64,000 nucleotides of DNA from an uncultured Thermoleophilia bacterium (GTDB lineage: Bacteria > Actinomycetota > Thermoleophilia > UBA2241): positions 105,607-169,606 of the forward strand of contig CAWEHE010000011.1 of the NCBI GenBank assembly GCA_963808735.1. The letters run 5' to 3'. The notes under the pieces are model-generated. The model worked only from the letters and a program-made list of their open reading frames with translations. It had not been told where the DNA came from and did no database searches. The stretch's first letter is position 1; each line of letters begins with the position of its first letter. A program made the position numbers and the translations under genes. Below are positions 6,641 through 50,690 of this stretch, in pieces.

Positions 6641-9483
6641 GTGCGGAACGAAGGCGCGAGACAGGTGGCGATCGAGGCCAAGTACATCCGGCCGCGGCAC
6701 GACCGCGCCAGCCTCCGGCCGGACGTGCGCGGGGCCTACGCCGCCGCGCTCACGCACCGGCTCACCGTCGTCTGCGCGCCCGCCGGCTACGGCAAGACCA
6801 CCTCCACGGCCGCCGTGCTCGAGCGATTCGGCTACAGGACCTCCTGGTACAAGCTCGACCTGCTCGACCACGACCCCCTCGCCTTTCTCGCAGGACTGGT
6901 GCGCGCGCTGCAGCGCCCCTGCCCAGGCTTTGGGGAAGCTCTCCTGCTGGAGCTCGAATCCGGGCCGGTCCGGGACCTGCCCGCCGCCGTCCTGGCCGCC
7001 CGATTCTGCTCAGAATGCGATCGCCTCGTGACTGAAGACCACCACGTCGTCCTCGACGACTACCACGAGGCGATGGACTCGGCGGCGATGAACGATGTGC
7101 TGGGCTATCTGCTGGAGAACTGCCCGGCCACCATCCACTTCGTCGTCCTGACGCGCTACGAGCCGGCCTTCAGGCTCGAGAAGCTCCACCTCGGCGGCGA
7201 GGTCGCGCGCATCCCTCGTGATCTCCTCCTCTTCGACGCCGGACAAGCCGCGGACGTGCTGCATGAGCGCTCCGGAGAGGACCACGACCCCGCGCACATC
7301 CGGAGGCTGCTCGAGCTCACGGAGGGATGGCCGGCGAGCGTCGTGCTCGCAGGGATGGCGCTCTCCTGGCTCGACGCCGCGTCGCTCGGAGACGCGCTCA
7401 GCGATCCGCGGCTGAGGTCCGACGTCTTCTCCTACCTCGCCGAGCAGGTCCTGCAGCGCCAGGAAGCGGAAGTGCAGCAGTTCCTCCTGCGTACCTGCTG
7501 CCCCGAGCACGTGACGGTGGAGTTGGCCGAACAGCTGACGGGAGCGAGCGGCGCCTCCCGCCACCTCCACTTCCTCGCCCGCAACCACATCTTCACCTTC
7601 GACACCGACAGGGCCGGGACGTACCGCTACCACAACCTTCTACGCGACTTCCTGCGCCAGCGTGTCGTCCAGGATCAGGGAGAGGCGGCATACCACGTCC
7701 TGCAGCTGGACACCGCGATCGCGCTGGAGGATTGCGGGGACCGGCCCGGCGCCATCGAGCTGCTCCTTGGGTCGAACGAGCCGGGACTGGCGCTCGAGGT
7801 GGTCGCCCGAGGCGGCGAAGCCGAGCTGGAGCGCCGCCCCTCCGAGCAGTTGCGCCTCTGGGTCGCGCAGTTGTCGCCGGCGCTCGAAGCCGGCCGGGCC
7901 TGGGCGCTCGTGGTCGCCGGGGTGCTCGGCGCGCGCGAGAGTCGCTTCTCGGACGCACTCGCCGATCTGCGTCTCGCCGCGGAGGCACTCGAGCACGAGG
8001 GTGACCGCGAGGGCCTCTATCAGGTGCTCTCCATCATGGAGTGGGCGGAGTTCTGGTCGGGCGACTCGTCGGCGAGCATGGCCACCTGCGCCCGCGCCCT
8101 GGAATACGCCGACGCCGACGCCCAACGGCTGCACACGCTGCTCAGCCTGCTCTCCGCAGCCGTCGACATGCGGCGCTGGGACACCGTCGCGAGCGCGTCG
8201 AGCCGGGCAGAAGCACTGTTGCCGCGCGCGAGACCCGAAGAGGCCGCTCGCGCGCAGGCGCTGCGGGCTCACGCGGCCTTCTACCGAGGCGACGTGCGTG
8301 CCGCCCACGACCTGATCCAGCACTGCAGCGATCCTCGCCACACGGCCTCCCAACGGGCGGCGACGCTCAACACGCGAGGAATGATCGAGACCTCGCTGGG
8401 CGAGTACGCATCAGCGGCCGAGCACCTGCGGGAGGCGGCCGAGGCAGCTGCCGGCTTCGGCCATGCCCTGGCCTCCTACATGATCGAGGACAACATAGCT
8501 TCCTGGAGGGGCCGCGCGAGGGCAGTTCGATCCGCATCCTCCCGCGACTGCAGGCCCTGCTGCGAACGAGACGACGCCACCGAACCGACTCTGTTGGCTT
8601 CGTGCTAGTCACCAGGGGACTGCTTCTTCGACGCGCTCGGAGAGCACTGGAGCCAGCCTCTACGCGACCGGACTCGCAGCACAAACGGTATCGTCGAGTC
8701 GAGACCCGTATCTCGCTTTCAACGCGTCCGCTAATCTCGCGCTTCGCCGAGGGCCTTCTCGGGGCGGACCGCGCAGAGCTGCGCTGATCGGAGTCTGTCC
8801 GCTGAGGCGCAGATCCGCTGGGCTGCAGCTTCGTCGAACTCAAGGCTCTCCTGTATGCAGGCATTCTCGCTGCGGCAGCCGGCGCGAGACCCAGGGCCGT
8901 CGAGCTGCTCGAAGAGTGCCTGCCACTTCAGCTCGAGCTCGGCCACATCAACCTGGTCGCCCAGGAGTTGTGTCCTCGCCCCGAGCTCGCGACCCTCGTT
9001 CTCCGGCGGCATCGGAGCAATGGGCTCGGACCGTCCTTGCTCGGGGCGCTCAGCCGGCACCCACGCTTCGGCGAAGCCGCGCCTATCCTCAGGGGCAGCT
9101 GCCAGTCGCAGGTGGGCACGTGGATCGACCACCTCGACGCCGGACGAAGCCCCAGCGTACCGGGCACCGCGGACGCGGCTGCTCCAGCACGGCGGCGGCG
9201 CGAGGCAGCGGGGAGAGCACCAGTCGGCGGTGGCTCTGCGCTCGACGAACTCACCGCACGCGAACGGCAGGTCCTTGAGCTCATGGCCCAGGACAGGACG
9301 AACGATGAGATCGCCGGCGACCTGTTCATCGCGCTCTCGACCGTGAAGACGCACGTCAATCGCGTCCTGAGCAAGCTCGGCCAGACGACCCGTGTGGGCG
9401 CGGTGCTCGAATACCAGCGGCTCCTGGGGGCGACGGGCGACTACCCGAGGTTCGACCCGCCTCGTCTCCACCCAAGGCCGTGA
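6641..9483 (+). CDS. MalT-like STAND ATPase / LuxR-family transcriptional regulator, several frameshifts near 8500-8950
   Basis: APAGYGKTT Walker A, VLDDYH, TEGWPA, YRYHNLLRDFL, a TPR-like region, and a C-terminal LTARERQVLELMAQ...TVKTHVNRVLSKLG HTH. Extended -10 TGTTATAGT near 6588-6596. Confidence 0.85.
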
Positions 9484-9570
9484 CCGGAAATCCACCCTGG
9501 GTATGATTCCGCGTGACGGCGGCGTCGCTAGCCTCTCCTCACGGCAACCGGGTCCACCGAGGAGACAGCG

Positions 9571-10590
9571 ATGGAATCGTCAATCTCAGTCACCTACATC
9601 GAGTCCGCCACCATGAGCCAGCGCAAGCAGACGGTCATCGACATCCTGCGTGACAGCCACGACTTCGTCTCCGGCGAGGCGATCAGCGACGTGCTCGGCA
9701 TCTCGCGCAACGCCGTGCACAAGCACGTCAAGTCCCTGCGCAAGCGCGGCTACCGCATCGTCGGCGTGTCCCGTCGCGGCTACCGCCTCGAAGACGAGCC
9801 CGCGCGGCTCTCGATGGGCCACGTCACGCAGCGCACCGAGAACACCATGTTCGGCCATTCCTTCCGCTATCACGACGAGATCGAGTCCACGAACCTCGAG
9901 GCCAAGACCCTCGCCCGGAAGGGCGCCCCCGAAGGTACGGTTGTGGTAGCCGAGGCGCAGACCGCAGGCCGCGGGCGCCTCGGGCGCCGCTGGACGTCGC
10001 CGGCGGGCAAGGGCCTGCTGTTCTCGGTGCTCCTGCGTCCGTCACTACCGATGAGCGAGGCACCGCTGCTGACCATCGTCGCGGCCACAGCGGCAGCCGA
10101 GGCGATCGAGAAGCACGTCGCGGCGCGCGTCGCCATCAAGTGGCCCAACGATCTCTTCATCGGCGACCGCAAGGCCGGCGGCATCCTCATGGAAGTCTCG
10201 GGCGAGCAGGATGAAGTGGACTGGGTCGTCCTCGGCATCGGCCTGAACGTGAACACCGAGTTCAGCGAGCTCCCGGTCGCGCTGCGGCGCACCGCCACGT
10301 CCCTCAAGATGGCCGGCGGCGAGACGATGGACCGCAGCGAGGTGCTCGCCAGCCTGCTGCTCAGCCTGGAGACGCACTACAAGGCCGCACTGCGCGGCGG
10401 CTTCGACCGCGCCCTCACGGCGTTCCGCGAGCGTGACTACCTCCTGGCCCGGACGATCAGCGTCGAGACGCGACAGGGGGCCGTGGTGGGCGCCGCGGCA
10501 GGCATCGACGACCGCGGCGCGCTCCTCGTCGAACTGCCGCACCGTCGCGTCCGGAGCTTCCACTCCGGCGACGTCACCGTTCGCTCCTGA
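9571..10590 (+). CDS. birA: Bifunctional biotin-protein ligase/repressor
   Basis: N-terminal HTH (SGEAISDVLGISRNAVHKHV), STN, QTAGRGRLGRRW, KWPND, KAGGIL, GIGLN. Confidence 0.95.
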   Translation: MESSISVTYIESATMSQRKQTVIDILRDSHDFVSGEAISDVLGISRNAVHKHVKSLRKRGYRIVGVSRRGYRLEDEPARLSMGHVTQRTENTMFGHSFRYHDEIESTNLEAKTLARKGAPEGTVVVAEAQTAGRGRLGRRWTSPAGKGLLFSVLLRPSLPMSEAPLLTIVAATAAAEAIEKHVAARVAIKWPNDLFIGDRKAGGILMEVSGEQDEVDWVVLGIGLNVNTEFSELPVALRRTATSLKMAGGETMDRSEVLASLLLSLETHYKAALRGGFDRALTAFRERDYLLARTISVETRQGAVVGAAAGIDDRGALLVELPHRRVRSFHSGDVTVRS

Positions 10591-10614
10591 GCCGCCGGCC
10601 CCCGGGTAGGCCGT

Positions 10615-10674
10615 TTGACGGCCGCCCGGGGGCCAGCTACATTGTCACCTCTTCGTACGTCCGAGAGGTTGACG
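10615..10674 (+). promoter_or_regulatory. Sigma70-type promoter of bioY with an overlapping BirA-like operator
   Basis: TTGACG (10615-10620) N17 TACATT (10638-10643). TGTCACCT-N16-GGTTGACG (10643-10674) resembles the BirA box TGTwAACC-N14/16-GGTTwACA. Confidence 0.6.
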
Positions 10675-10675
10675 A

Positions 10676-11227
10676 TTGTCCCGTCTCACCACCCGAGAGA
10701 TCGCCACCGCCGCCCTCTTCACGGCACTGATGTCGGTCGGGGCCTTCGTCGCCATCCCCGTGGGGTCCGTGCCGTTCACGCTCCAGGTGTACGTGGTGCT
10801 GCTCGCCGGGATGGTGCTCGGACCACGTCTGGGCACACTCAGCGTGGCGGCCTACCTCGTTCTCGGCCTCGTCGCCCCGGTGTACGCCGGCGGCGCATCC
10901 GGTTTCGGCGCACTGTTCGGCCCCACCGGGGGCTACCTCTGGGGCTTCCTCGGAGCGGTGCTCGTCACGGGGCTGATCGCGCGGCGGGGGGAGCGCACCG
11001 TGCCGCGGCTGCTGGTGGCTGGGCTCGCCGGCCTCGTGCCCATCTACGCCGTCGGCGCCTGGTGGCTCGCATTGCAGCTGGGGCTGAGCGCCCAAACGGC
11101 CGTGCTGACCGGCGTGGCGCCGTTCGTGTGGATCGACGTGGTGAAGGCCGTGGCCGCGGCGTTCACGGCGCGAGCGGTCGTCAGCCTGCCGCTGGGTCTT
11201 CCTGCCGCGTCCCGGCGAGGCCGCTGA
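10676..11227 (+). CDS. bioY: Biotin transporter BioY
   Basis: VPFTLQ...LAGMVLG...YLVLGL..PVYAGG...GPTGGYLWGF; adjacent to birA. Confidence 0.93.
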   Translation: MSRLTTREIATAALFTALMSVGAFVAIPVGSVPFTLQVYVVLLAGMVLGPRLGTLSVAAYLVLGLVAPVYAGGASGFGALFGPTGGYLWGFLGAVLVTGLIARRGERTVPRLLVAGLAGLVPIYAVGAWWLALQLGLSAQTAVLTGVAPFVWIDVVKAVAAAFTARAVVSLPLGLPAASRRGR

Positions 11228-12614
11228 CGTCGGCAAGGGCGTGACCGCGGAGCCGCAGGTTGATGCGGCCGCGCTCGTACTCGCCCATGAAGTCGGTGGA
11301 GCTGCCGTCGCGATAGGCGAGGTCCTTGTCCCGCAGGACCTTGGCGAGGGCCTCCACGTAGGTAGCGTCCAGGGTCGTGCCGGCCATCATGCGCAGCTCC
11401 TTGAGCGCCTCGAACGAGCTCCGGGCTCCGCGGTAGGGCCGGTCCGACGTCATCGCGTGGTAGCTGTCCGCGACCGCGAGGACCTTGCTGAGCTCCGGGA
11501 TCGCCTCACTGCGGATACCGTTGGGGTAGCCGCTGCCGTCCAGGCGCTCGTGATGGTAGCGGACGATGTCGGCGACCTCCTGGTAGGCGGCCAGGTGCGA
11601 GAGGACCTCGGCGCCCTTCTCGGGATGCTGACGGATGAACTCCCACTCGGCATCGTCGAGCGCGCTGGCCTTGCGCAGCACGGCGTCCGGCACGCCGACC
11701 TTGCCGAGGTCGTGGAGCAGCCCGGCGAAGTGCAGCGCCTCGGCCTCCTCCTCCGGCAGAGCGAGCGCGAGCGCGATGTCGCGGCAGTACATCGCCACCG
11801 CCGCCGAGTGCTGCGCCGTGTACTCGTCCTTGCTGTCGAGCAGGACGACCATGGCAGCGGCCAGGCCGATGTTCATCTCGAGATACTGGTCGCTCAATTC
11901 GGTCTGTCGCGCCACGTGCTCGCGCTCGCGCACCAGGAGCTTGAACATGTACTGGGCGGCGAACAGCGGCACGAACAGCAGCGCCACGGCGATGATGCCG
12001 GCGGCGGCGTAGAGCGCTGCGATCGCGAGCCCCAGCAGGAGGAGCACGCCGAGCGAGCGCAGGAAGGGTGGCATCTCCTCGCGCCAGAAGGCGCGGAAGC
12101 GACGGCGGTACTTGACGCGCATGCCGAGGCTGAGGAGAGCGAGGTTCGTCGCCTCGAAGGTCACGGCGGCCGCAGCTCCCGCAGCGAGGAGCCCTAGTGT
12201 CACCTGGTCGAGCTGTACGCCAAAGGGACCCAGCAGTGCGTCGAAAGCAAGTGAGGCGAGAAAGACGGCGATCACGTAATTGGCGGTGTTGTAGACGACA
12301 ACGAAGCGCGAACTCTCGCGCCAGGCGCCCCAGAGCCCGACCGCGACGGCAACGCCGATGGCCGGCAGCCTGCCCGTGAACATGATCGCCAGAAGGATGG
12401 GCAGGTTACCGGCGCTAAGGGTGACGCGGTCGGAAACCTCGACGGACATCTCGTCGGCGATGATGGCGAGGATGGCGAACACGACGGCGTCGCGGATGAC
12501 GGCCGTCGAGACGGGAATCGGCCCCGGAAAGCGGAACGCGTACGCCACAGCGAGCCCGGCGCAGAGCGCCAAGCCCGACGTGAGCACGCGGTAGTCACGC
12601 TCAGGTATCGACAC
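11181..12614 (-). CDS. Membrane-bound HD-GYP cyclic dinucleotide phosphodiesterase with a multi-TM N-terminal sensor domain
   Basis: About 7 hydrophobic segments, then KDEYTAQHS, LLHDLGKVG, HPEKG, YHHERLDGSGYP, ADSYHAMTSDRPYR. Start GTG 12614 after GGAGAGG. Confidence 0.9.
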   Translation of the reverse strand: MSIPERDYRVLTSGLALCAGLAVAYAFRFPGPIPVSTAVIRDAVVFAILAIIADEMSVEVSDRVTLSAGNLPILLAIMFTGRLPAIGVAVAVGLWGAWRESSRFVVVYNTANYVIAVFLASLAFDALLGPFGVQLDQVTLGLLAAGAAAAVTFEATNLALLSLGMRVKYRRRFRAFWREEMPPFLRSLGVLLLLGLAIAALYAAAGIIAVALLFVPLFAAQYMFKLLVREREHVARQTELSDQYLEMNIGLAAAMVVLLDSKDEYTAQHSAAVAMYCRDIALALALPEEEAEALHFAGLLHDLGKVGVPDAVLRKASALDDAEWEFIRQHPEKGAEVLSHLAAYQEVADIVRYHHERLDGSGYPNGIRSEAIPELSKVLAVADSYHAMTSDRPYRGARSSFEALKELRMMAGTTLDATYVEALAKVLRDKDLAYRDGSSTDFMGEYERGRINLRLRGHALADVSGLAGTRQEDPAAG

Positions 12615-12675
12615 GGTACCTCTCCGGGTGTGCAGTGACCCGTCTATCGGCACCGATTGTAGAGAGCTTGAGCGC

Positions 12676-12756
12676 TCAGTGCATCTTGCTGCCGCCGCCG
12701 CTCGTGACGAGCGCGTACAGCAGGGAGGCGAGCGTCTTCTCGATCTTCTTGCTCAT
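12676..12756 (-). CDS. Small peptide MSKKIEKTLASLLYALVTSGGGSKMH (26 aa), candidate signalling peptide precursor
   Basis: ATG 12756 with GAGGT RBS, TGA at 12676-12678. Basic N-terminus, hydrophobic core, GGGSKMH end; immediately upstream of the HD-GYP gene. Confidence 0.7.
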   Translation of the reverse strand: MSKKIEKTLASLLYALVTSGGGSKMH

Positions 12757-12787
12757 GGTGCTACCTCAGTCGATCGGTCGCTCGCGG

Positions 12788-12868
12788 TCAGTGCATCTTC
12801 CCAGCCGAAGCTGATGTGCATCTTTCCAGCGGAACTTGAATGTGCATCTTGCCGGCGAAGCTGATCAT
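12788..12868 (-). CDS. Small repeat peptide MISFAGKMHIQVPLERCTSASAGKMH (26 aa as read; possibly M-ISFAGKMH-IKFAGKMH-ISFAGKMH)
   Basis: Strong RBS GGAGGAAAGCC-ATG; three 24-26 nt units each ending AAGATGCAC, then TGA. Confidence 0.6.
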   Translation of the reverse strand: MISFAGKMHIQVPLERCTSASAGKMH

Positions 12869-13180
12869 GGCTTTCCTCCCGGAGGCTCACGTTTTCGCCA
12901 CCACGTGCCGATAGGATGTGGTTGACGATGCTGTGCCGTGACTCTATGGACGCCAGGCTGGCCTCGCCTACCCCGCGGACTTGGACAAACCGGGCAATGT
13001 GCGGAACACCGGTTGCCAGAATGGACAACGCCTTTCTCGTGGGGCTGCGAAGCCGCTGCCGGGTCGCGACACGTCAGCCCTCTTGGTGTACGCTTCGGGC
13101 GCGGCCGCCGCAGGCGCGCCGCGGGGCCCGTCGCCTTTCGAGGCCCCATTCAGCACACACCGCGCCGTGGGGGAACTGCG

Positions 13181-14407
13181 ATAGAGGCGAACGTCGTCGC
13201 CAGCGAAGCTCAGGTCGTGCCGCTCAACCGCAACGCGAGCTTCCTGCTGCTCTGGGCGGGCCAGTTCATCTCGCAGATCGGTGACCGGCTCGCCGCCCTC
13301 GCCCTCCCTTGGCTGGTCTACACGACGACGGGATCCGCACTGGGGACGGGCGCCGTGTTCGCCCTCTACACGCTGCCCTACGTCCTGTTCGGCGCCTTTG
13401 CCGGCGTCGCCGTGGACCGCTTCGACAAGCGGCGGCTCATGATCGCCGTCGACCTGGCCCGCGCGGCCCTCGTCCTGGCGGTGCCGTTCGTCGCCGGCCG
13501 CTCGCTGCCCGCCGTCTTCGTGCTCAGCTTCGCGATCTCGACGGCCGCCGTGTTCTTCGACCCCGCCAAGCTCGCCATCCTCCCCGAGATCGTGCCCCCG
13601 GGCCGGCTGCTGCGCGCGAACTCGCTGCTCTCGACCGGGGAGAACCTCACCGAGATCCTCGGCTGGGCGCTCGCCGGCGTGCTGCTCGCCTCCGTGAGCA
13701 CGTCGGTCGCGTTCGAACTCGACGCCGTCACCTTCGCCGTCTCGGCCGTCGCCCTCGCGCTCATGCCCTACCGGGCGCCGGCGCGCGCGGCGGCGGAGCG
13801 GACCGCGCGCGCCTTCTGGCGCGAGATGCAGGAGGGGTTCAGCTTTCTCCGCCACGACCGTGGCCTGCGCGCCAACACCGTCATGGTCCTCGTCTGCGTG
13901 GCCGGACTGGGCGCCTCCTACCCGCTCACCTTCCTCCTCGCCGTCAACGTGTTCGACGGCGGCACGGGGGCGTTCGGCGCCTTGGAGGCGGTCGTGGGCG
14001 CCGGGTACCTGGCGGGCTCGCTTGCCGTGGTCGCCTTCGCGCCGCGCGTGCGCAAGGGCCGGCTCATGATCGGCGGCCTGGCGCTCATGGGCGGCTGCCT
14101 CGCCCTCGTCGCGACGGCCGGCTCGGTGTGGATCGCGGCGATCCCGTTCGCCGTCTTCGGCATGGCCAACGCAGCAGCGCTGATCGCCGTGGACACGTAC
14201 ATGCAGCAGGTGGTGCCGCAGGGCATGCGCGGCCGCGTGCTCGGCATGCGGTTCACGCTCACCCAGGGCATGTACGCGCTCTCGGTGCTGGTAGGCGGCG
14301 CGCTCGCCGGGATCGTGGACGTGCGCATCCTGTTCGTCGTCGCCGGGGCCATCGTCGCGGCGTCTGCGGTGGTAGGCCTGCTGTCGCGAGAGGTCCGGGA
14401 GTCCTAG
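13181..14407 (+). CDS. MFS transporter (DHA3/MefA-like)
   Basis: FLLLWAGQFISQIGD, GVAVDRFDKRRLMIAVDL, about 12 TM. Start uncertain (ATA 13181 or GTG 13217). Confidence 0.88.
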   Translation: MEANVVASEAQVVPLNRNASFLLLWAGQFISQIGDRLAALALPWLVYTTTGSALGTGAVFALYTLPYVLFGAFAGVAVDRFDKRRLMIAVDLARAALVLAVPFVAGRSLPAVFVLSFAISTAAVFFDPAKLAILPEIVPPGRLLRANSLLSTGENLTEILGWALAGVLLASVSTSVAFELDAVTFAVSAVALALMPYRAPARAAAERTARAFWREMQEGFSFLRHDRGLRANTVMVLVCVAGLGASYPLTFLLAVNVFDGGTGAFGALEAVVGAGYLAGSLAVVAFAPRVRKGRLMIGGLALMGGCLALVATAGSVWIAAIPFAVFGMANAAALIAVDTYMQQVVPQGMRGRVLGMRFTLTQGMYALSVLVGGALAGIVDVRILFVVAGAIVAASAVVGLLSREVRES

Positions 14408-14538
14408 AAGCGCTCCCACCCGCGGCCCGGCCGGCTGCGCCGTCCGGCGACCGGGTGATAGCCTTCTAACGGAATCCCGAGGGCGACGCGCCGGGGTGGG
14501 GCCGGCCGTCCGTCGCCGGTCGTGAACGCAAGGACGCC

Positions 14539-15891
14539 ATGACCTCCCGGAACGACTCACAGACCCCCCGCGACGGCGGCGCGCAGCCTACGAGCTGGCT
14601 TCAGCTCGGCGTGATCAGCGTGTCCGAGTTCGTGGTCTGGGCCGGCTTCGGCGCCATCATCCCGTACCTCCCGCTCTTCCTCGAGGAGCAGGCGCACGCC
14701 TCGATGACTCTTTGGGCGGTCATCGCGGCGATGTTCTACGTGGGCACCCTGCTGTTCTCGTCGCCCCTCGGCTGGCTGAGCGACACGATCGGCCGCAAGC
14801 CGGTCATGGTCGGCGGGGCCGTCGTGTACACCATCGCGCTGCTGCTCTTCACGACCACCACCGATCCGTACTGGTTCATCCTCTTCCGTCTGCTCGAAGG
14901 TATCGGAACGGCGGCCTTCGGCCCCGCCGCCCAGGCGTTCGTCGCCGACATCACCACGGACGACAACCGCAGCAAGGCCTACGGGTTCCTGACGACGGCG
15001 CAGTTCGGCGGGTTGATCGTGGGGCCCGCCCTGGCCGCACCGCTCTACGCCCTGGGCGGCGGCGGCACCAGCGGCTTCTACGCCATCTTCTACTTCGGCG
15101 CGATCCTCTCCGGGCTCGCGCTGGCCGCGATCCTGCTGTTCGTGCGCGAACCGGCGGCGCTCAAGACTCGGCGCACGCAGCGCCGCCGCGAGCGCGAGGC
15201 GCACGCAGGCTGGCGGGTGGCCCTGAAGCGTTACCGCTCCATCTTCACGCCGCCGATCCTCGCCTTCGTCCTGATCGCGTTCACCAGCCACTACGCCATG
15301 GGCGCCTGGGACGTCGTGTGGAGCCTCTACCTCTCTCACCTCGGCGCTTCCAAGACGTACATCAGCATGACGTGGGTGGCGTTCAGCGTGCCGATGCTGC
15401 TCAGCTTCGTCGGCGGGATGTTCGCGGACCGCCACAGTCGCTTCTGGCTGTTCGTCGTCGGGTACGCCCTCTCGAGCTTCGCCTGGATGTTCTACGGCAT
15501 CTCCACGAACCTGGTGGCGCTCATCGTGGTCAACGTGCTGGAGGGGATCGCGATCGCCTTCTCCTATCCGGCGAAACAGGCGTTCCTGATCCAGGTGAGC
15601 CCGCGGCGCTGGCTCGGCACCGTGACGGGGGTCGAGGCGACCTCGATGCAGCTGGCCGGCCTGCTCGGTTCGCTCACGGCGCCGCTCATGTACGCAAGGA
15701 TCTCGGGACGGGTGCTCACGTTCGCAGGGATCATCGCCCTGGCCGGGCTGGCGATTGCGGCGCCGATCCTCTACCGGGCGTGGAAACGGCTCCAGGCGGC
15801 AGGGGACATGCCGACACAGGCCGAACTGGAACGGCTCGCCGACGGCACGAGGACCGCGTTCGCGGCCGAGCCGCCGCGCGGCCCGGAGTGA
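14539..15891 (+). CDS. MFS transporter (DHA1/TetA-like)
   Basis: GWLSDTIGRKPV motif A, FRLLEGIG, about 12 TM. Confidence 0.9.
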   Translation: MTSRNDSQTPRDGGAQPTSWLQLGVISVSEFVVWAGFGAIIPYLPLFLEEQAHASMTLWAVIAAMFYVGTLLFSSPLGWLSDTIGRKPVMVGGAVVYTIALLLFTTTTDPYWFILFRLLEGIGTAAFGPAAQAFVADITTDDNRSKAYGFLTTAQFGGLIVGPALAAPLYALGGGGTSGFYAIFYFGAILSGLALAAILLFVREPAALKTRRTQRRREREAHAGWRVALKRYRSIFTPPILAFVLIAFTSHYAMGAWDVVWSLYLSHLGASKTYISMTWVAFSVPMLLSFVGGMFADRHSRFWLFVVGYALSSFAWMFYGISTNLVALIVVNVLEGIAIAFSYPAKQAFLIQVSPRRWLGTVTGVEATSMQLAGLLGSLTAPLMYARISGRVLTFAGIIALAGLAIAAPILYRAWKRLQAAGDMPTQAELERLADGTRTAFAAEPPRGPE

Positions 15892-15921
15892 GGGCCACGG
15901 CGCGTCAGCACCAGCGAACGA

Positions 15922-16995
15922 TCAGTAGCGCCGGATCTCGCGGTAGAGCGTGTCGCGCTGCACCGGCGTGCGGCCGGCCGCACGGATGAGCCGCACCATC
16001 TCGTCGACGTCGCACTGGTTGCGCACGCCGGCGGCCGCGACGACATTCTCCTCGATCATCGTGGAACCCATGTCGTTGGCGCCGAAGGCGAGCGCCACCT
16101 GGCCCATGCGCAGGCCCTGCGTGACCCATGAGGCCTGCACATTGGGCACGTTGTCGAGGTAGATGCGCGTGACCGCGAGCATCATCAGGTAGTCGATGCC
16201 GGTGGCGGGGACGTGGCCGGCCTGCAGCTCCGTGTTGCCGGCCTGGAACGTCCATGGGATGAAGGCGGTGAAGCCGCCGGTCTCGTCCTGCAGGTCGCGG
16301 ATGCGGCGCAGGTGCTCGATGCGCTCGGCAGGAGTGTCGAGCGAGCCGAACATCATCGTCGCCGTGGTCTTCATGCCGAGCCCGTGGGCTATGCGCATCA
16401 CGTTCAGCCAGGTGTCGGTGGGGATCTTGTGCGGGCTGATGGCCGTGCGCACGCGATCGACGAGCACCTCGGCGCCGCCGCCGGGAAGGCTGTCGAGGCC
16501 GGCGGCGTGCAGCCGCGTCAGCGTCTCCTCTACGGTGAGGCCGCTCAGCTTCGAGATGTGGACGATCTCCGGCGGTGAGAGCGAGTGGATGTGGATCGGG
16601 TACCGCGCCTTGATGCCGCCGAACACCTTCTCGAACCAGCAGATATCGAGGTCCGGATGCAGGCCACCCTGCATCATGATCGCCGTGCCGCCGAGCTCGA
16701 GCGTCTCCTCGATCTTGCGGTGGATGTCCTCTTCCGCGAGGAGGTAGCCCTCCCCGCTCCCCGGCTTCTTGTAGAAGGCGCAGAAGCGGCAGCCCGAGAT
16801 GCAGTAGTCCGTGTAGTTGATGTTGCGGTCGACGATGAAGGTGACCTCGTCGCCGGGGTGCAAGCGGCGACGGACGGCGCCGGCGCGCGCGCCGGCGCCC
16901 AGCAGGTCGCCGCCCTCGAGCAGCGCGAGGGCCTCGGCGTCGGTGATGCGGCCGGCGGGCGGGGCGGCGGCGGGCGAAGTCCGGCCGCCGGTCAC
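15922..16995 (-). CDS. mqnC: Cyclic dehypoxanthinyl futalosine synthase (radical SAM)
   Basis: VTFIVDRNINYTDYCISGCRFCAF, MQGGLHP, SLPGGGAE, TTATMMFG, FIPW, QASWVTQG, GANDMGSTMIEENVV. Confidence 0.93.
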   Translation of the reverse strand: MTGGRTSPAAAPPAGRITDAEALALLEGGDLLGAGARAGAVRRRLHPGDEVTFIVDRNINYTDYCISGCRFCAFYKKPGSGEGYLLAEEDIHRKIEETLELGGTAIMMQGGLHPDLDICWFEKVFGGIKARYPIHIHSLSPPEIVHISKLSGLTVEETLTRLHAAGLDSLPGGGAEVLVDRVRTAISPHKIPTDTWLNVMRIAHGLGMKTTATMMFGSLDTPAERIEHLRRIRDLQDETGGFTAFIPWTFQAGNTELQAGHVPATGIDYLMMLAVTRIYLDNVPNVQASWVTQGLRMGQVALAFGANDMGSTMIEENVVAAAGVRNQCDVDEMVRLIRAAGRTPVQRDTLYREIRRY

Positions 16996-49412: not shown

Positions 49413-50690
49413 ATGGACGCCGCGCGGACAATCAGGGCCAGGCTGCTCGTCGCGCTGACGTGCCTGGCCCTCACGCTCCTGCTCCTGGCGCCGGCGGCGG
49501 CCACCGCCGGCCTCAAGGACAGGATCGCCGCCGCCCTGGCGGCTCAAGGCATGGCCGGCCCGGGGACGTCGGTCGCGGTCTTCGACCTCACGGCGAAGCG
49601 CTCCGTCTACCAGCTGCGGCCGGACGTGCTGCGCCTGCCGGCCTCCAACCAGAAGCTCGTCACCTCGTCGGCGGCGCTCGCCGCCTGGACCTCGACCTAC
49701 CGCTTCAGCACCCAGCTCTTCATCGCCGCCCCCGGACCGGACGAGGACGGCGTCGTGCACGGCGACGTCTATCTCCGCGGGCTGGGCGACCCGACGCTCT
49801 CGACGGCATCCTTCCAGTCACGGTACTTCGGCATGAAGACCTCCGACGTGCACGACTTCGTCGCCCGGCTCACCACGCTGGGCGTGACCGGCATCACCGG
49901 CCGCGTGGTCGCCGACGACGGCTACTTCGACCGCGCGCGCACCGTCGCCAACTGGCGGCCGAGCATGATCGCGTTCTGCGGTCCGCTCTCGGCCCTGACG
50001 CTCAACGAAGGCTTCGGATCCGACGGCCGCTACGTGAGCGATCCCTCGCTGTGGGCGGCGAGCAAGCTGACGAAGCAGCTTCGCGCCGCGGGCATCCGCG
50101 TGACGCATACGCCGGCCCGCGGCATCGTGCCCAGCACCGCGACGCTTGCGTACACGGAGCGCTCGGCCGCTCTGAGCCGCATCCTGGCGGCGATGAACAA
50201 GCCGAGCGACAACTACCTCGCCGAGGAACTGCTCAAGGGTCTCGGCGCGGGCTTCGGTGAGGGCGGCACGACTGTCGCCGGCGCCGACGTCGCCAAACGC
50301 TACCTCCAGGGCATCGGCCTCACGGAAGGGTTCCGCATCCGCGACGGGTCCGGCCTCAGCTACGAGGACAAGCTGTCGGCGAGGGCGGTCCTGCGGATCC
50401 TCGGGTCGATGGCCAAGCGCTCTGACTTCCCGGTGTTCTGGCGGTCGCTCGCGGTGGCCGGCGTGGATGGCACGCTGCGGTACCGCATGCGCGGGACGAG
50501 CGCCGCCGGCAACGTGCACGCCAAGACCGGCACGCTGAACGCCGCGAGCAGTCTCTCCGGCTACGTCACCACGGCCAACCGGCACACGTTGAGCTTCTCG
50601 ATCCTCATGAACGGGAGCGCCCTGCCGCTGACGCGGGCGCACGCCGCCCAGGACGCGGTCGCCGTCACCCTCGCGCGCTCGACGCCCTGA
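49413..50690 (+). CDS. dacB: D-alanyl-D-alanine carboxypeptidase/endopeptidase (PBP4, peptidase S13)
   Basis: PASNQK (SxxK), [14 protein letters not shown] (SxN), DGSGLS, AKTGTL (KTG). Confidence 0.93.

Follow-up and report, generated by a model that had tools for sequence, protein, structure and literature searches.

Two mini-genes upstream of an HD-GYP gene

Why should two minute open reading frames (ORFs) with the same last three residues lie directly upstream of a gene for a predicted cyclic di-GMP (c-di-GMP) phosphodiesterase, and are they genes at all? This question is raised by a 64,000-nucleotide (nt) stretch of DNA from an uncultured Thermoleophilia bacterium (contig CAWEHE010000011.1, positions 105,607 to 169,606), hereafter referred to as the window. 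An earlier reading of the same letters (the original prediction) had described two consecutive minus-strand ORFs of 26 codons, each with its own ribosome-binding site and each ending in K-M-H followed by a stop, before a multi-transmembrane HD-GYP gene. Both the coordinates and the description proved correct, and the elements of this core are the following:

12788..12868, minus strand: ORF1, 26 codons as assembled, built of three DNA units of 24, 26 and 25 nt, each with AAGATGCAC
12875..12879, minus strand: Shine-Dalgarno sequence GGAGG of ORF1 (sequence reading)
12676..12756, minus strand: ORF2, 26 amino acids, MSKKIEKTLASLLYALVTSGGGSKMH plus TGA (translation)
12763..12767, minus strand: Shine-Dalgarno sequence GAGGT of ORF2 (sequence reading)
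11181..12614, minus strand: predicted HD-GYP c-di-GMP phosphodiesterase gene, 477 amino acids from GTG 12614 (ORF and Pfam)
12619..12625, minus strand: Shine-Dalgarno sequence GGAGAGG of the HD-GYP gene (sequence reading)

The start of the HD-GYP gene is most likely this GTG, 61 nt past the ORF2 stop. Both mini-genes terminate with AAG ATG CAC TGA. ORF2 begins with a basic N-terminus, continues as a hydrophobic helix (about 12-15 residues, the small ones along one face) and ends with a Gly-Gly pair and a tail of the form Lys/Arg-aliphatic-His, which abuts the stop codon exactly. ORF1, in turn, has no hydrophobic, export or membrane segment. When all six-frame stop-to-stop segments of the 3.24-Mb genome were collected (n = 91,642), only two were found to end in K-[MILV]-H, and these are ORF1 and ORF2 (about 3.1 such ends are expected among the 84,245 segments of 3 amino acids or more). 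Searches of Pfam and NCBIfam gave no significant family match for the mini-gene peptides, and exact ORF2 sequences are present in the protein collection without a name.

Conservation of the mini-genes as peptides

To follow the mini-genes through related genomes, we used 20 same-genus loci with an orthologous HD-GYP gene (59-91% protein identity) and 60 orthologous loci from public metagenome-assembled genomes, all titled uncultured Thermoleophilia, Actinomycetes or Actinomycetota. The combined set holds 71 loci with the 5' part of the HD-GYP gene, which represent 54 distinct leaders. The original prediction had proposed a search for conserved small ORFs upstream of HD-GYP homologues, and this search bore out its expectation: ORF2, with a hydrophobic core and a G-G-x-x-K-x-H end, is intact (ATG, 25-26 codons, stop) in 50 of the 54 distinct leaders, where it encodes 32 distinct peptides. 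Its TGAGG ribosome site is also conserved in relatives. Over the whole length of ORF2 the ratio of nonsynonymous to synonymous polymorphism (pN/pS) is 0.37, and variation falls mostly on third codon positions (summed entropies of 16.4, 11.2 and 28.6 for positions 1, 2 and 3). Residues M1, G20, G21 and H26 are invariant, and position 24 is either Lys or Arg. By our reading of the alignment, the first codon positions of a 78-amino acid antisense ORF coincide with the most variable sites.

ORF1 is conserved in a different manner. A single-unit form of 8-9 amino acids is found in 18 leaders (e.g., the 8-residue MRKGAKIH), while 25 leaders have 2-4 in-frame units of 5, 6, 8 or 9 residues. Among 45 distinct ORF1 ends, the third residue from the end is Lys (41) or Arg (4), the next is aliphatic (45/45) and the last is His (45/45), always followed by the stop; the five residues ahead of these (-4 to -8) are free to vary, conservation being limited to the final tripeptide and the stop. 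In two leaders (L035 and L039) we observed two separate single-unit ORF1 copies with their own starts, such as MVVTSVKMH and MVVSNVKMH. The HD-GYP leader of locus L019 (genome G006) carries no ORF2 and instead has two 8-amino acid ORFs with their own ribosome sites, MRQSWKLR and MRKSWKLR, whose tail ends in Arg (K-L-R) and not in His.

The original prediction had also allowed for a motif kept at the DNA level regardless of reading frame. What the leaders contain is the opposite, as the tail codons vary (AAGATG/ATT/ATC/GTG/CTT-CAC) under an unchanged K-hydrophobic-H-stop, and genomes with a K-I-H tail use ATT for Ile in ORF1 but ATC in the ORF2 of the same genome. Because nucleotides change in relatives while the amino acids are kept, a peptide is to be preferred over a DNA repeat; judged by this comparative record, ORF1 and ORF2 are genuine protein-coding mini-genes, conserved as peptides and not as DNA.

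Distribution and linkage to the HD-GYP gene

A profile of ORF2 matched 61 of the 79 genomes of one family (f1), distributed over ten genera, with a single copy in nearly all of them and two copies in two genomes. No full-length match was obtained in 321 genomes from eleven other families of the class, where three partial matches were seen (E values of 0.001-0.01). In 28 of the 30 matches whose surroundings were fetched, the HD-GYP orthologue follows ORF2 directly on the same strand; the other two are cut by contig ends. The genus genomes scored for both elements comprise 17 with the orthologue and ORF2, one with the orthologue only, two with neither and none with ORF2 only. Nine distant HD-GYP homologues from other families (34-43% identity) were likewise inspected, and none has a K-[MILV]-H-stop end upstream (0/9); a sigma-28-like site is present at three of these nine loci. 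The mini-genes are strictly linked to the HD-GYP gene in one family of uncultured Thermoleophilia. As a separate observation, one of the nine distant loci has a segment ending in K-V-R about 470 nt upstream.

The reading frame of ORF1 in the window

ORF1 as assembled has its first and last units in frame (K-M-H), with the middle AAGATGCAC out of frame. The original prediction took this ORF at face value; its K-M-H end stands, but the middle residues (IQVPLERCTSAS) are suspect. Contigs from two other sequencing runs (X1 and X2), one of them a 280-nt contig with a single substitution relative to the window, are shorter than the window by 2 nt at 12836 and by 1 nt at 12805, and give ORF1 units of 24+24+24 nt. 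The ORF then has 25 codons, and its three K-M-H copies end at residues 9, 17 and 25. Because the contigs of these two runs give three in-frame units, the ORF1 of the window is probably a three-unit peptide gene whose broken frame stems from an indel in the assembly or from a rare variant.

Out-of-frame copies occur in 8 of 33 multi-unit leaders, the window included. All seven named records with such copies are assemblies of the type 'MFD... contig_N', and in six of the seven the HD-GYP gene is itself interrupted by stops or frameshifts, while the five multi-unit leaders on NODE_ or k141_ contigs, names that suggest short-read assemblies, are all in frame. In the window's own genome, a second HD-GYP sensor gene (L081, 2246..4235, minus strand, G000:C5) is split into frames of 190 and 632 amino acids, which indicates a frameshift or an assembly indel. 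Out-of-frame copies, which had been named in advance as a sign of a DNA-level repeat, were accordingly confined to assemblies with indels elsewhere.

The window has five copies of AAGATGCAC where 0.18 are expected (none of 100 shuffles reached five), and four of the five fall within 172 nt at the mini-gene locus. Genome-wide, its 22 copies equal those of the reversed control (22), the mini-gene locus being the only cluster. AAGATGCAC was also considered as a regulon site and rejected, as there is no second cluster in the genome.

Promoter-like sites and WhiG context

What else is conserved in the leader? Outside the coding regions, the leader alignment shows blocks of the form CT[C/A]AAG-N15/16-GCCGATAG past the ORF2 stop, the reverse complement of this before the ORF1 ribosome site, and two further blocks, GTCAAC and TAGAGT. 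The first two correspond to the arms of an inverted repeat (I1), and these arms are two divergent sigma-28/WhiG-type promoter-like sites. Neither their nature nor the promoter-like site before the HD-GYP gene was part of the original prediction. The relevant features are the following:

12644..12671, minus strand: P2, sigma-28/WhiG-type promoter-like site (-35 TCAA at 12671-12668, 16-nt spacer, -10 GCCGATAG at 12651-12644)
12887..12914, plus strand: Pdiv, sigma-28/WhiG-type promoter-like site (-35 TCAC at 12887-12890, 16-nt spacer, -10 GCCGATAG at 12907-12914)
12921..12926, minus strand: GTCAAC box, at a fixed distance from the Pdiv -10; found with an ATCGGC element in 46 of 52 loci
12941..12946, minus strand: TAGAGT, putative -10 of P1, the inferred promoter of the ORF1-ORF2 unit
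13190..14407, plus strand: divergent MFS transporter gene (MFS_1/MFS_3), start approximate (Pfam MFS_1 5.8e-41, MFS_3 4.8e-34)

P2 occupies the spacer between the ORF2 stop and the HD-GYP start, and its -10 ends 29 nt before the GTG, whereas Pdiv is directed at the MFS_3 gene. As a yardstick we took the consensus used by Schumacher and co-workers in Rubrobacter radiotolerans, with -35 TAAA and -10 GCCGATAA and at most two mismatches (PMC8325347), together with a distance of no more than 200 bp from the start codon. P2 (TCAA-N16-GCCGATAG) has two mismatches and lies within 200 bp of the start. A -10-like element follows ORF2 in 47 of 50 leaders under a loose pattern (38 of these read GCCGATA plus one further nucleotide), and on the opposite strand such an element stands before ORF1 in 43 of 50 (29 with GCCGATA plus one further nucleotide, often with a perfect TAAA). 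In relatives, TAAA is paired with GCCGATAA in 12 loci, with GCCGATAC in 11 and with GCCGATAG in five, and Pdiv takes the form CTAAAG-N15/16-GCCGATAA/C/G. On these matches, the HD-GYP gene very likely has its own WhiG-type promoter, P2. A long-range RNA stem between the two I1 arms was considered and rejected: compared by eye, CTT[T/G]AG and CT[C/A]AAG are matched in 11 loci and mismatched in seven.

For the mini-genes themselves, the only conserved promoter candidate is a hexamer resembling TAGAGT, present in 35 of 52 loci and in most cases 14 nt ahead of the GTCAAC box; we infer that ORF1 and ORF2 are transcribed from this upstream promoter, P1. Its -10 overlaps the predicted start region of Pdiv, so that P1 and Pdiv should exclude each other. 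A scan of 12550-13250 for the sigma-70 consensus returned no sites. The GTCAAC box is nearly invariant and would sit at the very start of the Pdiv transcript. Two TTGTCCA boxes (13022-13028 and 12982-12988, minus strand), 40 nt apart, lie upstream of the putative TAGAGT -10 and are both present in relatives with sequence reaching that far; a regulator of the mini-gene promoter may use this pair as its operator. Two terminator-like matches were also noted inside ORF2, on the plus strand.

Candidate parts of a WhiG circuit are also encoded in the genome. A FliA/WhiG-family sigma factor is encoded at G000:C13 (TIGR02479, 275.5 bits against a curated cut-off of 189.6), and a candidate single-motif RsiG is given by an ORF of about 97 amino acids on the minus strand near 50393 of G000:C17, with one E(X)3S(X)2R(X)3[Q/H](X)3D motif (ERDISRRRRILHGELD); it is the one plausible candidate among three regular-expression matches in six frames. 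Promoter-like sites of the same kind are found elsewhere in the genome: CTCAAG-N15-GCCGATAG before the second HD-GYP gene (L081), GCCGATA elements before a third, and a near-perfect GTAAAG-N15-GCCGATAA about 180 nt before a gene resembling MshEN/T2SSE pilus extension ATPases (L128, G000:C13:238849-240621). Further sites precede genes for two DUF4388 proteins, a LuxR-type response regulator, an SLH protein and a subtilase, as well as four ORFs without a Pfam family. These sites outline a putative WhiG-type regulon in the window's genome. In R. radiotolerans, mapped WhiG promoters precede type IV pilus genes and five genes for diguanylate cyclases or phosphodiesterases (PMC8325347). Given the P2 site, the WhiG-type sigma factor and the candidate RsiG, the HD-GYP gene is likely part of a c-di-GMP-controlled WhiG regulon, as are the cyclase and phosphodiesterase genes in Rubrobacter.

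The HD-GYP protein and its neighbors

The C-terminal half of the HD-GYP protein matches Pfam HD_5 (E value 1.6e-40; 139.1 bits against a cut-off of 27.2) and HD (1.8e-21), and the HD..GK (HDLGK) and GSGYP motifs are visible in its translation. With a domain above cut-off and both motifs, the predicted product is an HD-GYP c-di-GMP phosphodiesterase. The N-terminal 230 residues are hydrophobic, with about 7-8 hydrophobic segments before residue 230 in a rough hydropathy scan. Residues 57-234 match MASE9 (PF20972) with 22.0 bits (E value 1.8e-4), below the gathering cut-off of 24.3, and we therefore refer to this domain as MASE9-like.

Regarding the surroundings, the MFS_3 transporter gene is a neighbor in 51 of the 54 distinct loci. 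On the other side of the HD-GYP gene, a birA-like biotin ligase/repressor gene (HTH_11, BPL_LplA_LipB and BPL_C domains) and bioY adjoin the locus (window 9571-11227); bioY is convergent with the HD-GYP gene and is kept there in 47 of 54 leaders.

Possible modes of action of the peptides

What would the peptides of the mini-genes do? Of the readings considered, we favor, tentatively and with less than even confidence, one in which the peptides act in trans and are coupled to the adjacent MASE9-like HD-GYP sensor. The original prediction had likewise proposed that the tail may be a ligand or an intramembrane partner of the HD-GYP sensor domain. We favor it because ORF2 is constrained over its full length as a basic-hydrophobic-GlyGly-tail peptide, because the spacer to the HD-GYP gene contains a promoter-like site and not an attenuator, because the spacing from the ORF2 stop to the downstream elements varies (23-60 nt to the -10) and some lineages carry a hairpin after ORF2 (GC-rich, right after the stop and of -8 to -30 kcal/mol in several divergent loci), and because ligand binding inside the membrane was proposed for MASE9 in the work that defined this domain (10.1101/2021.11.05.467447).

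Under this trans reading, P1, which overlaps Pdiv, should fire while WhiG is inactive. ORF2 would then insert beside the membrane sensor domain and present its K-x-H-COOH tail on a flexible Gly-rich hinge, while ORF1 would supply soluble copies of the shared K-x-H tail, with the number of units setting the dose. Enzyme made together with the peptides, from P1, would behave unlike enzyme made alone, from P2, and the peptides would constitute a second input to the WhiG/RsiG/c-di-GMP switch. A narrower version, possible but held with more doubt, is that of a peptide gate: Lys-aliphatic-His-COOH would be a dedicated ligand of the MASE9-like sensor, tethered in ORF2 or soluble and multi-copy in ORF1, and made from a promoter mutually exclusive with the WhiG promoters. 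If this were true, a peptide signal would set c-di-GMP turnover and, through RsiG and WhiG, the expression of pilus-type genes. To our knowledge, no peptide ligand is encoded beside a c-di-GMP enzyme in any known system, and none was found by title or abstract in the literature searched.

Several observations weigh against action in trans. First, if ORF2 is oriented with its N-terminus inside, as its basic N-terminus would suggest, the identical tails of the two peptides would lie on opposite sides of the membrane, since ORF1 lacks an export or membrane segment. Second, ORF1 conserves three residues and a stop, in single units of 8-9 amino acids, which a ribosome-proximal motif fits at least equally well. 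Third, the L019 lineage lacks ORF2, so that the hydrophobic peptide is dispensable there, and the hydrophobic stretch of ORF2 is in any case short for a transmembrane helix. Fourth, the middle tail residue is identical in ORF1 and ORF2 in 21 of 27, which on the tree amounts to only three independent contrasts. Finally, P1, P2 and Pdiv are sequence matches and hence putative promoters, and the Pdiv of the window (TCAC-N16-GCCGATAG) has three mismatches and is separated from the presumed MFS start by about 275 nt, outside both limits of the WhiG yardstick. When ORF2 was modeled as a complex with the first 250 residues of the HD-GYP protein, the score was 0.17 against a mark of 0.32; with controls absent and a partner below the calibration length, this score speaks neither for nor against binding.

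The main rival, somewhat unlikely in our estimate, is that the mini-genes encode leader peptides that act in cis. Ribosomes on the P1 transcript would pause at Lys/Arg-aliphatic-His-stop or not terminate there, possibly triggered by a small molecule; the pause would alter read-through, stability or translation of the HD-GYP message, and tandem units would multiply the pause sites. Both ORFs do lie in the same-strand 5' leader, and in both of them conservation is concentrated on the last three residues and the invariant stop, as at the stall sites of TnaC-like peptides. The short single-unit forms of ORF1, the fixed length of ORF2 (25-26 amino acids, as in TnaC-type sensors) and the two K-L-R ORFs that L019 keeps without ORF2 are in line with such a role. 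A further, weak hint, which applies to the reading in trans as well, is RNA-library contig X15 (219 nt, three differences), which covers 12587-12805 and links the end of ORF1 and ORF2 to the HD-GYP start, although carry-over of DNA is possible; in other RNA runs (X16-X20) the shares were small, and pieces from X16 differ from the window at 8 of 68 letters and then continue in sequence unlike it, so that they come from relatives and were not used as evidence.

A leader of this kind would be expected to act on something downstream, and a conserved attenuator, terminator, rut site or Shine-Dalgarno-sequestering structure was not found in the leader: Rfam gave no matches on 12400-13400 at E values up to 10, the folding of the leader was no better than that of shuffles (minimum free energy z-scores of 0.11 for 351 nt and -0.89 for 101 nt), and RNAalifold returned an empty structure for 50 aligned ORF2-to-HD-GYP spacers. 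The conserved elements of the spacer are explained by P2, and their distance from the ORF2 stop is variable, with hairpins inserted in some lineages. Moreover, as the HD-GYP gene has its own putative promoter, leader control would be limited to P1 transcripts, and the hydrophobic helix of ORF2, conserved with the low pN/pS given above, would be left without a role. We know of no K-x-H arrest motif, which also counts against a cis role.

Rather improbable, in our view, is a third reading in which the peptides are released. ORF2 would amount to an export signal and little else, losing its last 3-6 residues by cleavage outside the cell, and ORF1 would be a multi-copy precursor that yields the same short K-x-H peptide; the product would be a pheromone-like signal or, with His as its third residue, a metal-binding peptide, perhaps exported with the aid of the MFS transporter, and its target need not be the HD-GYP protein. 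ORF2 does follow the n-h-c scheme of signal peptides, and the residues right before K-x-H are small (G, S); its conserved tail abuts the stop as in precursors with a C-terminal mature peptide. In Phr and SHP/XIP precursors the mature peptide is C-terminal. In-frame tandem units of 5, 6, 8 and 9 residues arose in different lineages, which is typical of multi-copy precursors, and the MFS_3 neighbor is kept with a P2-type promoter; however, synteny kept within one family is weak evidence of function. ORF1 also lacks an export segment and shows no conserved cleavage site ahead of its tail. In the surrounding 4 kb or so to each side (ORFs of 8000-16000, with Pfam run on five neighbors), we saw no peptidase, ABC exporter, Opp system or RRNPP-type receptor. 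The NCBIfam model Phr_nterm matched one ORF2 variant below its cut-off (E value 0.37, 11.4 bits against 25) and the window peptides not at all, short of an assignment to the Phr/SHP type, and the metal-binding idea is a conjecture from general chemistry.

Finally, the reading of AAGATGCAC as a repeat in DNA or RNA to which a protein binds, with the ORFs incidental, to which the nine intact bases of the window's out-of-frame middle copy and the out-of-frame copies of other loci would lend themselves, is close to refuted and nearly excluded by the exchange of nucleotides under constant amino acids, the lack of enrichment elsewhere in the genome, the confinement of named out-of-frame records to MFD assemblies, most of them with a damaged HD-GYP gene, the restored frame in contigs of two other runs and the frameshifted HD-GYP paralogue of the same genome.

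Comparison with known systems

The mini-genes resemble several known systems in part. The original prediction had likened ORF2 to a peptide precursor, and this likeness is a fair one: as in Phr and SHP/XIP precursors, a basic and hydrophobic N-terminal part is followed by a presumably active C-terminal end, next to a signaling gene. The differences are that no family match was obtained, that no RRNPP or Opp component was seen nearby, that the neighbor is a phosphodiesterase and that ORF1 has no export part.

MgrB, which acts on PhoQ, is likewise a short hydrophobic peptide encoded with, and here presumed to act on, a polytopic or membrane sensor, an arrangement that suggests wiring by feedback (PMC2789325, PMC8404706). 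ORF2 has a short helix (about 12-15 residues) and strict gene linkage, two of the traits of this class; contact with the sensor, the third, is putative. MgrB differs in having 47 amino acids, a histidine kinase as its target and no companion with tandem units, whereas ORF2 has 25-26 amino acids and a fixed C-terminal tripeptide. In the PilA-PilS system of Pseudomonas and the PilA-c-di-GMP system of Caulobacter, a short hydrophobic peptide of the inner membrane, similar to an N-terminal helix, also serves as a signaling input (PMC6058289, PMC7196804). The 25-amino acid form of ORF2 has Glu at position 5 in most variants, and the locus belongs to a putative pilus-type regulon. Unlike pilins, ORF2 has neither a prepilin leader (G/F cleavage site) nor a globular part, and its Glu is not invariant, so that we take this likeness as a lead only.

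TnaC, SpeFL and PepNL are short upstream ORFs that also have conserved C-terminal residues abutting the stop and a conserved length; in TnaC-type sensors, termination is blocked at the stop codon (PMC8450073, 10.1101/604074, PMC11890864). In contrast to these, the spacer described here contains a promoter-like site, no downstream structure or Rho-type spacer was found in the leader, and two ORFs share one tail, in combination with tandem units and a hydrophobic core.

A regulatory parallel is the switch formed by WhiG, RsiG and c-di-GMP in Rubrobacter and Thermoleophilia (PMC8325347). The promoter-like sites in the genome of the window match its -35 and -10 elements and stand before genes for c-di-GMP enzymes and a type IV pilus ATPase, and this genome also has a WhiG-family sigma gene and a small ORF with one RsiG motif. 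The published switch differs in that the available text of this source mentions no mini-genes nested between WhiG promoters, and in that our evidence consists of sequence matches in an uncultured organism.

The HD-GYP gene and the WhiG-type promoters are of known kinds, and a WhiG promoter before a phosphodiesterase gene repeats the Rubrobacter finding. The mini-gene pair resembles small-protein regulators, leader peptides and pheromone precursors, and fits none of them fully. What is distinctive is the three-residue tail common to two adjacent mini-genes, the independent tandem expansion of the unit that bears it and the position of the pair, enclosed by putative divergent promoters for a single alternative sigma factor. 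The statement of the original prediction that no system of this form has been characterized agrees with our limited literature searches: titles and abstracts on HD-GYP and small proteins, supplements aside, contain no description of such mini-genes. This negative does not extend to the supplementary promoter tables of PMC8325347 and 10.64898/2026.01.14.699351, which possibly list comparable loci.

Significance for c-di-GMP signaling in Thermoleophilia

For most c-di-GMP enzymes the input has yet to be identified, and what membrane-embedded MASE domains bind is a question of long standing. The mini-gene peptides are a concrete candidate for the input to a MASE9-like sensor, and one that can be synthesized and tested. 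Should they act in cis instead, K-x-H-stop would be a new nascent-chain motif, so that either outcome would be new. The locus also illustrates that mini-genes of 8-26 codons can be validated by comparative data alone. For the organism and its relatives, the locus extends the WhiG/RsiG/c-di-GMP circuit described in Rubrobacter to a family of uncultured Thermoleophilia, in which the HD-GYP enzyme would close a positive feedback loop.

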